Source of the DNA: a virus
Taxonomy: Duplodnaviria > Caudoviricetes
IMG/VR virus record: IMGVR_UViG_3300038321_000202
Coordinates: 1 to 38,611 of that record
Strand: one strand, 5' to 3'
DNA length: 38,611 bases
Numbering within the stretch: position 1 is the first letter of the stretch; each line of letters opens with the position of its first letter. Positions 1-38,611 of this stretch are shown piece by piece. Below the pieces are notes generated by a model. That model saw only the letters and a list, made by a program, of their open reading frames with translations, was not told the origin of the DNA and ran no database searches. The position numbers were made by a program, and so were the translations under genes.

Positions 1-94
1 CTTCAAAATGATTTGCTCGCAACATTCATTTTATCAGAGTCCCCGGTGGTTTCCTATACCTACCTACAAATTGCAAACTTTATTGTACTCTATC
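1..94 (-). mobile_element. IS256-family insertion sequence, left end (partial)
   Basis: 68-94 (rc GATAGAGTACAATAAAGTTTGCAATTT) is an imperfect 27-bp inverted repeat of 38532-38558. It is flanked by GGGTCCGC (95-102), duplicated at 38524-38531. Inward-facing extended -10 TGATAAAAT at 28-36 (minus). Confidence 0.75.
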
Positions 95-348
95 GGGTCC
101 GCGCCCGGATGCTCTTTTTTATAGCGATCCTGATAGTATTTATCCAGGTTGTTATCCTGCCAGGTTTTCAAGGCCTTTTGCGTATGCTTATCCTTTTCGC
201 TGTCCAGCCATGCAACAGCGTCCCGATCCTTCCTGACAAAATTCTGTACCCGATCCAAGGTTAACGGGTTGAAACCTGCCACAAATTTTTGAACATCTTC
301 CTGATCCTTGTTTTTTGCCAGAAAATCCTGTACTTCCTGTAAAGTCAT
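95..348 (-). pseudogene. Capsid scaffold protein (DUF4355-like), N-terminal part, interrupted by IS
   Basis: ATG at 348 with GGGGG SD. MTLQEVQDFL...EHPGADP joins in frame through the duplicated 8 bp to KDSKISELE... at 38522, giving about 192 aa. Sits between minor head and major capsid genes. Confidence 0.85.
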
Positions 349-414: not shown

Positions 415-446
415 TATAAAAAAAGCGCCCGTTTCCGAGTGCCTTT
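415..446 (-). terminator. Intrinsic terminator-like hairpin
   Basis: Minus strand AAGGCACTCG-GAAA-CGGGCGCTTT (one mismatch) followed by a T run. Confidence 0.55.
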
Positions 447-476
447 ACACGCGTTTGTTTCTTTCTTTTTTTGTTT

Positions 477-508
477 ATTCCAATCTACACTCCCGCGCAA
501 GGAGCGAC
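477..508 (-). CRISPR. Solitary type I-C CRISPR-repeat-like unit (no array, no cas genes)
   Basis: Minus strand GTCGCTCCTTGCGCGGGAGTGTAGATTGGAAT: 32 nt, GTCGC start, 7-bp stem pairing positions 3-9 with 15-21, and an 11-nt tail resembling TGGATTGAAAT of I-C repeats. Confidence 0.75.
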
Positions 509-520
509 TTATCGTAGGGT

Positions 521-730
521 TTAAGGCTCTAAAGCAAGCAAATTACTTTGGGAAACCTCTATCAGCGATCCCGCCTTAAATTCGTCCTGGTCCTGCTCAA
601 CCCGGCACATATAGGATTCATAATCTTCTTCAAGCGGCTGAATGACACTGACTTTTACGAAACCAGAGGAACCCCAATTTAATTTTACTTTTATAGTTTT
701 CCCGATGCTTTTTCTTAATGCCTTAATCAT
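521..730 (-). CDS. Small protein, putative immunity protein of the MuF toxin
   Basis: 69 aa, overlaps the stop of the toxin-bearing muf gene. The function is inferred from position only. Confidence 0.55.
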   Translation of the reverse strand: MIKALRKSIGKTIKVKLNWGSSGFVKVSVIQPLEEDYESYMCRVEQDQDEFKAGSLIEVSQSNLLALEP

Positions 731-1997
731 TGCCGCTCATCTCCTTTACCGGATATACATGCGTACCCGAATTTGAATATACGATCATAGCCTTATGCGT
801 AGCAATCCATCCCCCGGTTTTTTGATCCTGGTATTGACCGATAACACGGTCTGCCGTTATCACTTCTTTCGGAGGCTGCGATGGTGACTGTATCACAATA
901 CGACCGGTTCCGTGGTATTTGTCTATCAACGACTGGGCGTCAACACTTAATTTACTGCGACCATTTACATACCTTCCCGATTGCGGGTCATGCCGTGCCT
1001 GTAAATCCTTGTTGACAGACAGATTATATCCCCCTGACATAATCTTATCCCGAAAATTAGATTCCAAAGTTATTATATCACTTTTATCGGCCGGGGAAAC
1101 AATTTTTCCACTACTTTTAATACCTTTTTCTTCTGCCCATTGATCATAGCTTTTATACCCGGTATTTTTGCCGGTTTCATTGTCCCGGCGCCGCTGCGGC
1201 TGCCAATTACCGGTCGGCACGTTGATATAGACACACCGACACTCGGGATGAATCGGGATTTCCGGTTTAGCGACATCGTCAATATCAAAATATTTCCCAT
1301 CCAGCCCAGCACATACAGCGCAAGTGTTGGATTCCAGCGTCGCGCAGAACATCTGCCGCACGCATCCGGCGGATTCCCCGATGTCGTCAATAGCCGCAGA
1401 CTGGATACGAGCGTTTTCCGTATGCACCAGCCGCTGGGATTCATATGCCTGCACGTTAAACGTCTGCCGGAGTTCCTGCCCAATCTGATCGATCGTAACG
1501 CCACCGTTTAAAGCATCCAGGAAGGATCCTTTCAGCCTATCAGCGACTGCGGCTTTATTATTCCATATCCGATTGGAAAACAGCTCTCCTTTAACCGGAC
1601 TATTTACAGCGGCGTCAATGTATTCCTGTTTCAACATTCCAAACTTAATTCCGGTTTTTAACCCGGAATCCAGAACATACGCCGTTTTATAATAGGCATC
1701 CTCATAGTTATGCGCTAAAATATTGGATATAGTCCTGATCTCTGCATCACCGATACTCTTCTGCGCCGATAAAATCTGCTTATCGACGTCGGAAAGAATT
1801 GCCGCTTTCTGCGCCGCGGAAACATGCAGCATCCCATCAACCGCGTGCTTCACGTACAGCAGCCCAAGATATTGATGCAGCCCGGTCAGACGGCTCTTTT
1901 GTTCACTGTAAACGATCTGCATTTGCCGATCCGCATACTTTTCACCGTCCTGCTTAATCTTCAAAATCAATTTTTGATATTCCGGATTGATTTTCAT
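723..1997 (-). CDS. Minor head protein (MuF/SPP1 gp7-like) with C-terminal Ntox50-like toxin domain
   Basis: TCAVC...PIHPECRC MuF motif. C-terminal QARH...GRSKL...LIDKYHGTG...KEVI...IVYSNSGTHVYP matches the Ntox50 pattern. Follows the portal. Confidence 0.85.
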   Translation of the reverse strand: MKINPEYQKLILKIKQDGEKYADRQMQIVYSEQKSRLTGLHQYLGLLYVKHAVDGMLHVSAAQKAAILSDVDKQILSAQKSIGDAEIRTISNILAHNYEDAYYKTAYVLDSGLKTGIKFGMLKQEYIDAAVNSPVKGELFSNRIWNNKAAVADRLKGSFLDALNGGVTIDQIGQELRQTFNVQAYESQRLVHTENARIQSAAIDDIGESAGCVRQMFCATLESNTCAVCAGLDGKYFDIDDVAKPEIPIHPECRCVYINVPTGNWQPQRRRDNETGKNTGYKSYDQWAEEKGIKSSGKIVSPADKSDIITLESNFRDKIMSGGYNLSVNKDLQARHDPQSGRYVNGRSKLSVDAQSLIDKYHGTGRIVIQSPSQPPKEVITADRVIGQYQDQKTGGWIATHKAMIVYSNSGTHVYPVKEMSGND

Positions 1998-8599: not shown

Positions 8600-8896
8600 A
8601 TTGTGCTACGCGTACATGCGTGTAACACGTCATTACTAAAATCCTAAGAGTACTACAAATATAGATTTAAAGGATATAGAATCCTCTTTATTATCTTTAA
8701 TCCTATGTCTGTACCTACATAGGGGATTATTGGTTTACTTAGTTTACCTATATTAAAAACGGCTTATTTATGGGCTTTTTCGGTAAACTAATTTGGTAAA
8801 CCAATTAAATTTATTAGTTTACCTGGTTTACTTTAACAGCTTTAGGTAAACCAACTGGGTAAACCAATAAAAGCCTTTTAGTTTACTTGGTTTACC
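8600..8896. repeat. Putative replication origin with ten GTAAAC-core repeats
   Basis: AT-rich non-coding region directly after the primase-helicase gene; five repeat pairs of alternating orientation at 8731-8896. Confidence 0.75.
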
Positions 8897-11329
8897 CTAT
8901 TTCCCGATATATTTCCAGCCCTTTTGCGTTCCATAACCCGCTCCGAACTTCATAGTACTGGAACGTTTCCACCCCGGCATCTTATCCAGAATCTTTGAAA
9001 CACGGTTGCTTTCCGACCGTTTAACGGTCCATCCCGGACGCCAGCCCAGGCATTCACGACCGATTTCCAGCACGCAAATACGGTCCCGGTGTACCAGGTT
9101 ATCGTCCTTCTCCTGTCCCGCTTCCTGCGAGGCGAGAAATGTTTCGCGGGCGACGGAATCCATCTGCATCCAGTTTCGCGGCACGGGACGGTCCAGGAAC
9201 GCGGCGATCTGTCCTTCGTAGTCGTCCCGTTCCGTGTGGCCCTGCCGGCGTTCCTCGGCTTCCGCCTCTTCTTCCGCGGTAAGGACCAGCGGCTCGCCCA
9301 TCTGCCAGTACAGGTAGGCTTCCGCCCACAACTGCCCCACGGTTTCCGGAGTCATATCATCCCATACGTTTTTTGCCGGGCGGTCCCCGCAGTCGATAGG
9401 CCAGAAGCGGCGGTTGCCGGTCGGGTCTTTTAAGTAGTCGTTGTCGTTTGTGGTACCGAAAAAGACGCATTGGCGCGGGTGTTTTTCGGGTCTGTGGGCA
9501 TAGGCCGTCCGATATTCATCACAGGATTGTGATACCATTTGCTTAACGGTATTGGTATCCGCCCGGCTCATTGAGGACAGTTCCGGGATTTCGACGATCC
9601 AACTGCCCTGGATTACTTCCGCGACGGCTTTCGGGTCGTCGAAGGATACCATAAGCGCGGATGCCCATGGACCGCCCAGGCGGGCGGCGAACGTGCTTTT
9701 ATAGGTGCCCTGCGGGCCGCAGATAACGACCATTTCGTCGTATTTAATCCCGGGCTGCATTGCCCGCGCTACGGCGGCAGCAAGGCTCTTGCGCCCCACA
9801 GCGCGGACGTATGGGGTATCGGCTTCCCCAAAGTAATCCTGGTACAGCGTATCCAGCCGCCGCACGCCGTCCCATTGCAGTCCTTGCAGGTATTCCTGTA
9901 CCGGGTTATAAGCGTTTTCGGTCGCGGTCTGGACCAGGGCGTCGTTTATGGTGTCTGCGTTATGGAACCCGAGCAGCTGTTCTACGCAGTTGCGCAGGCC
10001 GGCGTCGTCCGTGTCGGTCCATTCAAAGGTCCCTGTCCCGTCTTTGCGGCCCGCCCATGGCAGAGGGCAAACCCCTTCAATGCGGGAACTGAATGTGTTG
10101 AGCCGGATTTTATTTTTCAGCAGAGGGCTGTGGTCCAGCATGACTGCTGCGTTATAGATCGTATGTTCGTACCTGCCGTTGTTGGGGGATACTTTCAGCG
10201 CACGCATCCACTGCGTGTCCGGTTTTTCCTCGCCATTCGCCGCCATCATTTCACTGACATCCGCAGTCGCCTGCTTATACCGTTCGGCATTAAGGATGTC
10301 GACGACCTGGGCGTCGTGGCCGGCAAAATTGCACATGGCCGTATAGGACGGCATTTTCCCGATCGGTGTTCCGGGCTTCGCGTTGTCGTCCTGATCTCCA
10401 AACAGATGGATCCGGCACAGGTCGAAGGCGTTGCACAGTTTACCGGATGCGGGGTCGGTAGCGTGGTGGGAATACAAGAATTTCCCTTCATATACGATAG
10501 CGCCGCCGGTTGTGCTGCCCGCCGCATAGGTGTAACGGTTTGGCTTGTCTGTGGGCGTGTAGACGCCGGGCAGGACATTATCGATTGTATCGTAAATGCT
10601 GTGTACTTTGCACCAGGCGCCCACGATGCCGGTCTTTTCTTCCGGGTCCTGCTGCCGTTTGGCCAGGCGGTTATAGGTATCCTGTGCACCGGGTACCTGC
10701 GGCCATGTGCCCCAGTCGTGCCAATCTTCGTACATGCCCAGAATGCCGTCTGCCGACAGCAGCGGCAAATCCGCACAACGGAATATGTATTCGCTCCCGG
10801 CACAGCAGGACGGCCAGTACATGAGCCGCGAGGCTTCAAACGTCGTCGGATCGTAGATTTTCATGCTGGGGTCAATGATAGACGCCACACGGCGTGCTAT
10901 GGGTTCGTATTCGTCCGGGGTCACGCTGTGGTCCAGCGGCAGCAGAATCCGCAGTCGGGGCGCGTCTGGGCGATGCTTGCGGGTGCTGTAGACGGCATAT
11001 CCGCATTGCAGCCCTGCCACGCGGCGCAGGATATCATCCGTTCCGCCGGGTGGGATATTATCGGCGTCCAAGGTTACGCCGTCCCGATACAGGACGGTAT
11101 TCGCCTTTCTGCGGCCGTCCTTTAATTCTCCGAAGATATAGCCGCCGATGTCTTTTAAGTCGTCCTGCCTTGCTTTCGGCAGCCGTAGATAGGCTTCCAT
11201 GCTTTCGGTGCTGCGCGCCGGGATTTTCAACTTCTCGTATAAATCGGCCACGAGCAGTTTTTGTGCCGGCCAGGATGCCGCCCGGCGGGTTCCTGCGGCC
11301 GCTATCGTAATCAATCTGTCGTATTGCAT
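8897..11329 (-). CDS. Primase-helicase (primase-like N-terminus plus VirE/VapE SF3-type ATPase)
   Basis: LDAD and YSTRKH...PRLR primase-like motifs; GPQGTYKST Walker A; WIVEIPEL; GTTN...DPTGNRRFWP. Confidence 0.9.
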   Translation of the reverse strand: MQYDRLITIAAAGTRRAASWPAQKLLVADLYEKLKIPARSTESMEAYLRLPKARQDDLKDIGGYIFGELKDGRRKANTVLYRDGVTLDADNIPPGGTDDILRRVAGLQCGYAVYSTRKHRPDAPRLRILLPLDHSVTPDEYEPIARRVASIIDPSMKIYDPTTFEASRLMYWPSCCAGSEYIFRCADLPLLSADGILGMYEDWHDWGTWPQVPGAQDTYNRLAKRQQDPEEKTGIVGAWCKVHSIYDTIDNVLPGVYTPTDKPNRYTYAAGSTTGGAIVYEGKFLYSHHATDPASGKLCNAFDLCRIHLFGDQDDNAKPGTPIGKMPSYTAMCNFAGHDAQVVDILNAERYKQATADVSEMMAANGEEKPDTQWMRALKVSPNNGRYEHTIYNAAVMLDHSPLLKNKIRLNTFSSRIEGVCPLPWAGRKDGTGTFEWTDTDDAGLRNCVEQLLGFHNADTINDALVQTATENAYNPVQEYLQGLQWDGVRRLDTLYQDYFGEADTPYVRAVGRKSLAAAVARAMQPGIKYDEMVVICGPQGTYKSTFAARLGGPWASALMVSFDDPKAVAEVIQGSWIVEIPELSSMSRADTNTVKQMVSQSCDEYRTAYAHRPEKHPRQCVFFGTTNDNDYLKDPTGNRRFWPIDCGDRPAKNVWDDMTPETVGQLWAEAYLYWQMGEPLVLTAEEEAEAEERRQGHTERDDYEGQIAAFLDRPVPRNWMQMDSVARETFLASQEAGQEKDDNLVHRDRICVLEIGRECLGWRPGWTVKRSESNRVSKILDKMPGWKRSSTMKFGAGYGTQKGWKYIGK

Positions 11330-23418: not shown

Positions 23419-23430
23419 TGCAATTTTCTC

Positions 23431-23482
23431 TGGTCCGAGTGACAAGACTTGAACTTGCGGCCTCTTGACCCCCAGTCAAGCG
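23431..23482 (-). tRNA. 3' fragment of tRNA-Pro(GGG), the att core (not a full tRNA)
   Basis: Anticodon arm CTTGA-CTGGGGG-TCAAG, T arm with GTTCAAG, ends CACTCGGACCA; no 5' acceptor strand or D arm. Confidence 0.88.
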
Positions 23483-38198: not shown

Positions 38199-38531
38199 TT
38201 ACTTTAAATCAAAAATCGAATTAATTTCCTGTTGCGCCTTGTCCTTATCCGTGGCGGGATCTTCATCGGCTTTCGGCGGCTTGTATCCGGCCTTCAACCG
38301 TTCCTCGGCAACGGAATTTACGCTTTTGGTAAACGCGGATTCCAGCGCATTTAAATTGTTTTTCGTTGCGTCCTCATCCTTACCGATGAAAAAGCTGACA
38401 AGTTCCGACGGCAGTTTCTTTTCCCCAGCGTATTTTAACGCCTTTGCCGTCAGATCCTTCTTCGCGGCTTCCGCCCGGATCTCAGCGACCTGTTTTTCAA
38501 GTTCAGAAATTTTACTGTCCTTCGGGTCCGC
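38199..38531 (-). pseudogene. Capsid scaffold protein, C-terminal part
   Basis: ADPKDSKISELEK...AEERLKAGYKP; continues the 95-348 fragment. Confidence 0.85.
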
Positions 38532-38611
38532 GGTAGTGTCAAGAGAAGTTTGCAATTTAGGGGCTCCGAGAGAATGAATTATGCGGCGGTTGGGAAAGCG
38601 TTCTGCATAGA
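38532..38611 (-). mobile_element. IS256-family insertion sequence, right end (partial)
   Basis: GGTAGTGTCAAGAGAAGTTTGCAATTT terminal repeat; possible transposase end ...SMQNAFPTAA* on the minus strand; 8-bp TSD. Confidence 0.75.

Follow-up and report, generated by a model that had tools for sequence, protein, structure and literature searches.

A solitary type I-C CRISPR repeat behind a MuF toxin gene and its likely immunity gene in a temperate siphophage

The DNA analysed here, called the window, is the whole 38,611-nucleotide IMG/VR record IMGVR_UViG_3300038321_000202. Its 38.6 kb make up a temperate siphophage, whole or near-whole, and PHROG matches among the 45 ORFs scanned identify terminase, portal, MuF, scaffold, capsid, tail, lysis, integrase, repressor and replication. 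The record opens within the scaffold gene, at the end of an insertion sequence, with inverted repeats at 68-95 and 38531-38558. The insertion-sequence ends (1-92 and 38543-38611), with a target duplication of approximately 11 nt, interrupt the scaffold gene in the record; this gene is unbroken in L027, L029 and run X12. An attP-like tRNA 3' half, which from its sequence may be read as tRNA-Pro, lies intact between integrase and endolysin, so the record appears to be the excised form. At the end of the primase-helicase gene (8730-8910), short motifs of the TTGGTTTAC-type are repeated, and these are likely the replication origin.

The named relatives of the integrase (65-76%) point to Caproicibacterium and Caproiciproducens, and integrase relatives at 60-75% were present in 4 of the 20 genomes of the genus of G505. 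The 53-nt tRNA-like stretch beside the integrase, a likely attP core, also helped to place the family (Table 1). We infer that the host is likely kin of these two genera, a placement at the family level only, because the family was reached via a host-like gene on L029. Features of the locus are collected in Table 1.

Table 1. Features of the MuF locus and other landmarks in the window
Feature	Coordinates	Strand	Remarks
Scaffold gene, 5' part	93..348	(-)	downstream of the terminator; 3' part at 38199-38532
Predicted intrinsic terminator	418..442	(-)	hairpin with a GAAA loop and a single A-C mismatch, followed by T7
A-rich stretch, 34 nt, in the place of a spacer	443..476	(-)	unpaired in the predicted fold; no target found
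Solitary type I-C CRISPR repeat	477..508	(-)	7-bp stem, pentaloop, 11-nt handle
69-aa ORF, small Sm/SH3-like beta-barrel	521..730	(-)	overlaps the toxin stop
MuF, a minor head protein like SPP1 gp7, carrying Ntox50 at its C terminus (residues 328-416)	723..1997	(-)	Pfam PF04233, PF15542; PHROG minor head protein
Likely attP core (tRNA 3' half)	23430..23482	.	52/53 bases matched in 8/401 genomes of the family searched

The Ntox50 domain of the MuF protein is a predicted RNase toxin. Among 1.84 billion representatives, the 69-aa ORF that follows had one close homolog, P0145 (58%), and for MuF-Ntox50 the only other match was P0144; both are recorded on a contig of 44,275 nt, likely the same one. 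A model of the 69-aa protein, built from a two-row alignment, is a small barrel with a pLDDT of 90. Foldseek returned weak Sm/LSm matches (E 0.02 or worse), and the best ESM Atlas match (0.89) is unnamed. When residues 305-424 of MuF were modelled together with the 69-aa protein, the complex scored 0.85, against 0.00 for the best of 3 controls, at least 93% of the contacts agreed between runs, and partner pLDDT was at least 89. Of 157 solved complexes, 116 reach the mark that it passed, as do 2 of 215 mismatched pairs; these rates are only rough with alignments of our own. The modelling thus suggests that the 69-aa ORF probably encodes immunity to the Ntox50 toxin, which its product is predicted to bind. 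It belongs to no known family and is a candidate new immunity family for Ntox50.

This arrangement resembles the MuF polymorphic toxins described by Jamet et al. 2017 (PMC5576092), in which a MuF protein with C-terminal Ntox50 is followed by a small ORF within the head module, and where a downstream immunity protein is expected. Here the MuF domain, the toxin tip and a small downstream ORF with predicted binding are all present, and in the relative L029 MuF tip and small ORF are swapped. A repeat at the end of the cassette is an extra relative to the published toxins, and the main text of that paper never mentions the word CRISPR. The possibility that the 69-aa ORF encodes an anti-CRISPR (Acr) protein was considered and rejected: no family matched over the cut-off, and no Acr was among the fold matches listed. 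The Ntox50 domain was not found in a scan of viral contigs. Searches for the 69-aa ORF in 401 family genomes and for the DNA in 20 genus genomes gave no match; having no positive control, they carry no weight. The Sm-like fold of a protein encoded beside A-rich and U-rich RNA is suggestive and unsupported.

The 32-mer behind this ORF reads from 508 to 477 on the coding strand and starts 12 nt past the ORF stop, sequence and spacing being just as the original prediction had them. It folds into a 2-nt 5' end, a 7-bp stem with two G-U pairs, a pentaloop and an 11-nt tail (-8.9 kcal/mol), in agreement with the proposed type I-C geometry (C3-G21 stem, two G-U pairs, 11-nt tail). The fold energy by itself is ordinary (z -1.1). 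A covariance model built from 13 I-C repeats gave the element 38 bits, and the runner-up site in the window 11 bits. The E-value of 2.3e-7 leans toward the element, because the training repeats, most of them true array repeats, had been gathered by a pattern drawn from it. Over 38 other loci (345 kb) the model found nothing in 36, and the two that scored, L023 and L025, carry clear repeats. Repeats of type I-C, such as those of arrays near cas5c and cas8c, have 32 nt, a 2-nt 5' end, a 7-bp stem, a pentaloop and an 11-nt tail, and 477-508 has them all. Solitary repeat units are defined as intergenic, lacking even a partial repeat within 100 bp, and belonging to an element without cas genes, and this too describes 477-508. 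That it is single, in a window free of cas genes, had been stated beforehand and held: the next-best ungapped match in the window has 14 mismatches, and no PHROG match to a cas gene occurred among the 45 ORFs. Given the model score, the few matches in other loci, and host-family repeats only 4 changes away, the element is a true solitary type I-C repeat and not a chance likeness.

It is, however, a degenerate one. Among 41 distinct repeats the closest is 4 changes away, and repeats of the likely host family are 4-5 changes away. Against the 41 repeats collected, the element reaches 89.3% over 28 nt and 32.2 bits, which is under the SRUFinder cut-offs of 90% identity, 90% coverage and 41.1 bits to a known repeat (the published library holds 17,823 repeats). 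The exact sequence was absent from 9 supplement files of PMC10651486 and had 0 matches in IMG/VR. There were likewise 0 matches for a motif joining handle and A-rich stretch, and 0 in Rfam at the gathering cut-off.

A host lineage with an I-C system and a similar repeat had been set beforehand as a test of the prediction, and such systems were found for the likely host at the family and genus level. Repeats of this type occur in 11 of 121 relatives of G436 and, within the genus of G505, in 5 of 20 genomes. In G436, genes for Cas3, Cas5c, Cas8c, Cas4, Cas1c and Cas2 adjoin an array of 72 repeats. No host-family spacer among 374 matched the phage (0/190 and 0/184 closer than 9 mismatches).

Outside the loop, four changes separate the element from the host-family consensus: C9T and C20T in the stem, both giving G-U pairs, and G23A and A29G in the handle. 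The latter place at positions 23 and 29 the two tail differences already noted in the prediction. T9 and T20 are also found in degenerate repeats of host arrays (L162 and L063) and in viral copies. The handle changes are almost absent from other repeats: none of 184 host copies and one of 65 viral copies has G23A (1/249 in total), and A29G is in neither set (0/184 and 0/65; 0/249). Neither variant is in the published table of solitary repeat units (SRU; 2,194 rows; PMC10651486), where the normal tail appears 347 times; this table is biased against variants, as it was filtered at 90% identity. The stem of the element (-8.9) is weaker than that of host repeats (-11.1 to -13.0). Both stem changes preserve pairing, for which the chance is about 0.23 given transitions. 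The handle has 2 changes per 11 positions, and the 5' end plus stem 2 per 16. The sequence thus gives no sign that selection protected the handle, and since handle and stem have changed to the same extent, selection for an RNA anti-CRISPR (Racr) role is likely relaxed.

Cas5c is described as cleaving after nucleotide 21 and retaining the 11-nt handle (PMC8524198; review PMC5965381). Recognition by BhaCas5c centres on U22-G23-G24, and SmuCas5c cleaves C20G, G21U and G23U substrates nearly normally (both PMC8524198). In the element, length, G21, the C3-G21 pair, U22 and G24 are intact. Thus, among the bases that Cas5c reads, C3-G21, U22 and G24 are kept and G23 and A29 are changed, and according to the enzymes compared in PMC8524198 tolerance of such changes depends on the enzyme.

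The original prediction was silent on the 34-nt A-rich stretch, on the terminator, and on the upstream MuF toxin and likely immunity gene. Repeat, A-rich nucleotides and terminator form a crRNA-like layout, with a handle-to-hairpin distance of 34 nt, near that of real crRNAs and of the viral locus L097 (37 nt). The terminator hairpin is common to L029 and occurs in perfect form in 10 viral loci (two of them duplicates) in varied contexts; its stem mismatch is missing from L029 and from those 10, which have no repeat nearer than 12 mismatches. We considered whether this hairpin could be a second degenerate repeat, as it resembles some I-C stems, but rejected this, as it is a generic terminator in the 10 loci.

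A search around the repeat revealed no promoter belonging to it, the best pair within 60 nt scoring 7/12. Sites with 9 of 12 matches lie at 776, 690 and 895 and are at chance level. For transcripts starting at 730 or later, the repeat stem is predicted to pair with a probability of 0.86-0.94, but 70 extra upstream bases are predicted to disrupt it mostly (0.2). Handle and A-rich part are predicted unpaired (0.84-0.87), and in an RNA cut after G21 the terminator would be the 3' hairpin.

As for targets of the 34 nt, the longest TTN-flanked seed that the window offers has 7 nt, which is also the commonest value among 348 real spacers; moving the register by one gives a 9-nt seed inside the integrase gene. 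Over 21 host I-C loci the best seed is 9 nt, within an array spacer, and in 10 I-C genomes the first 20 nt have 1 match with two mismatches. The stretch is unusual in composition, with A at 19 of its first 24 nt, compared with a maximum of 16 among the 348 host spacers. A CreTA-like self-target on the toxin was also sought, and no match rose above chance.

Conservation in related phages had been proposed as a check, and the outcome went against the prediction. The element is unchanged in L027 (301-2000), which may be where the window itself comes from, and in X4 (361-2123, a contig of a separate study), both of the same strain. In L028/L029, the nearest different phage (MuF 74%), toxin tip and small ORF are different, and at the place of the repeat there is an unrelated hairpin. 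L029 (182-1594) keeps MuF, with its C-terminal tip replaced together with a 74-aa acidic ORF, a cassette swap at approximately residue 295. Ten further MuF loci, two of them with little or no downstream DNA, have no repeat behind MuF. Relatives by portal (40-53%) and by capsid (54-64%) have none either, and INPHARED holds no close relatives. A contig in run X12 aligns to 483-673 with 7 differences, and the 24 letters that it has past 483 stay unaligned, which could mean a different handle end; run X14 has an unaligned end behind 442.

A placement in the late structural operon had been thought unusual. This view is weakened by L097, L023 and L025: as all three carry I-C repeats in head or tail modules, such placement is not rare. 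In L097, a MuF relative (54%), an insert lying on the opposite strand separates MuF from a portal-like gene. On its minus strand (1560-2460), a 12-of-12 promoter is accompanied by three small ORFs (65, 83 and 45 aa), the 45-aa one being ribbon-helix-helix-like (Pfam, at cut-off). A second 12-of-12 promoter precedes a 28-nt short-stem I-C repeat (1621-1648) whose handle is perfect and which is followed by 37 nt and then a strong hairpin. This insert is a better candidate than the element in the window for a Racr or Cracr, and for acr-aca genes, and it illustrates the form of an intact unit among these phages. In L023 (2501-2532; also L024 and L026), a perfect I-C repeat stands 4 nt ahead of the start codon of a glycosyltransferase-like gene that comes after the capsid gene, and a cut in this repeat would hit the translation start region. 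L025 (2245-2532), in the tail region of a provirus, has five I-C repeats whose leader resembles that of the host and whose spacers are short or odd; a promoter and small ORFs precede them. One of these spacers looks A-rich like the stretch in the window, a likeness of low complexity. A phage mini-array in L115 (1950-2150, minus strand) has three degenerate I-C repeats with promoter-like sequence ahead, the middle one carrying T9 and A23 as in the element. A broader motif matched 32 viral loci, many of them solitary.

Of the known systems, the nearest is RacrIC1 among the solitary repeat units of Camara-Wilpert et al. 2023 (PMC10651486), also a single I-C repeat in a temperate phage without cas genes; its host lineage has type I-C, as does the likely host family here. 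As reported there, RacrIC1 lies 11 nt behind an ORF, acrIC5, and shares its transcript; the spacing in the window is 12 nt. Unlike RacrIC1, the element has two handle changes. Its neighbour is probably an immunity gene, not an Acr, so the locus is unlike the acrIC5-RacrIC1 operon. An acr or aca neighbour, common for Racrs but not required, was not seen, the adjoining ORF being the likely immunity gene. The element would work, if at all, like RacrIC1. With Cracr/crlRNA (Liu et al., bioRxiv 10.1101/2024.10.29.618823) it shares a layout of one repeat, a spacer-length stretch and an intrinsic terminator. For a Cracr, the spacer-like part should match a cas or creT promoter over at least 9 PAM-proximal bases; no such target was found in the window, in 21 host loci or in 10 I-C genomes, among which the true host apparently is not. 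With no promoter, no 9-base PAM-proximal target outside an array and a stretch of low complexity, a Cracr role is not supported by the sequence. Viral mini-arrays, as reviewed in PMC11656645, are similar in having a repeat with one spacer-length stretch in a virus, but there the repeats are described as matching those of the host exactly and the spacers as directed at related viruses, whereas the repeat in the window is not host-identical and its stretch has no related-virus target. Among the papers covered by our literature search, none pairs solitary repeats in phages with MuF.

The reading we prefer, which holds about half of our confidence, is that 477-508, which closes a MuF toxin-immunity cassette at its 3' end, is a solitary repeat of the Racr type that is drifting and has little or no activity left. 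Its RNA would be made solely by head-operon read-through, or from a weak promoter upstream of the immunity gene. Provided that it tolerates G23A, the Cas5c of the host would cleave behind G21 and release an RNA of approximately 70-71 nt, made of the 11-nt handle, 34 unpaired A-rich nt and the terminator hairpin in place of the 3' repeat hairpin. Such an RNA could sequester Cas5c and Cas7 and guide them nowhere. Rather than a decaying unit, the element may be an active Racr. It would then be transcribed together with the immunity gene, plausibly in the lysogen too, be cut by Cas5c and bind Cas5c/Cas7 in a dead-end complex, in the manner of RacrIC1 behind acrIC5; we regard this as a possible reading, and a doubtful one. 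The intact cut-site geometry, the predicted pairing of the stem in transcripts from 730 or later with handle and A-rich part free, the crRNA-like distance to the hairpin, and the I-C arrays in the likely host family all fit it. So do the precedent of RacrIC1, which worked at 29/34 identity (PMC10651486), the tolerance of SmuCas5c, the presence of G23A in the L115 mini-array, and the unchanged element in X4, though this is the same strain. However, the handle changes are almost never seen, longer transcripts would mostly lose the stem, and with the handle changed, promoter and acr context absent and conservation lacking, a drifting unit is somewhat favoured over an active one. Thus, of the decoy originally proposed, a real solitary I-C repeat in a phage whose likely host family has type I-C stands. 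A working decoy is made doubtful by the missing promoter, the two rare handle changes, the absence in the nearest relative and a neighbour that is likely an immunity gene.

It is improbable, in our estimate, that the RNA never mattered and the repeat is a scar, copied in by spacer-protospacer recombination or by stray Cas1-Cas2 integration and replacing the PAM, with the 34-nt 'spacer' being old phage DNA. The last bases ahead of the terminator do resemble the same place in L029, no leader-like sequence was seen upstream (by eye), and the X12 match ends in unaligned letters, but no empty-site allele of the cassette was found, in searches partly without positive control, and none of the host-family spacers matches the phage. 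Slightly less probable again is a guide RNA, of the Cracr kind or an anti-phage mini-array, whose 34 nt would lead the Cascade of the host to the promoter of a cas or toxin gene, or to a competing phage. Its layout equals that of CracrVA1 as described by Liu et al. (bioRxiv 10.1101/2024.10.29.618823), and a target may have been missed if the genomes searched omit the true host; the short seeds, the single two-mismatch match and the run of A argue against it. That a 3'-UTR hairpin came to resemble a repeat by chance is scarcely credible: L029 has an unrelated hairpin at the same place and the fold energy is unexceptional, but the score is far above the next site, and outside the window the model picked out only clear repeats.

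Phages with a lone I-C repeat are already known and are common, and a single degenerate copy therefore adds little. The element would matter if a handle changed in this way can still bind Cas5c, since such a class would escape published searches, and if the toxin-immunity transcript doubles as a Racr carrier. In the latter case, to which we give an outside chance, the toxin-immunity cassette would carry its own anti-CRISPR RNA: Cas5c would trim the 3' end of the immunity mRNA and free a guide-less, poly-A-like crRNA mimic. If this is true, a lysogen obliged to express immunity would also damp its own I-C system, and polymorphic toxin cassettes would be vehicles that shuffle Racrs among phages.
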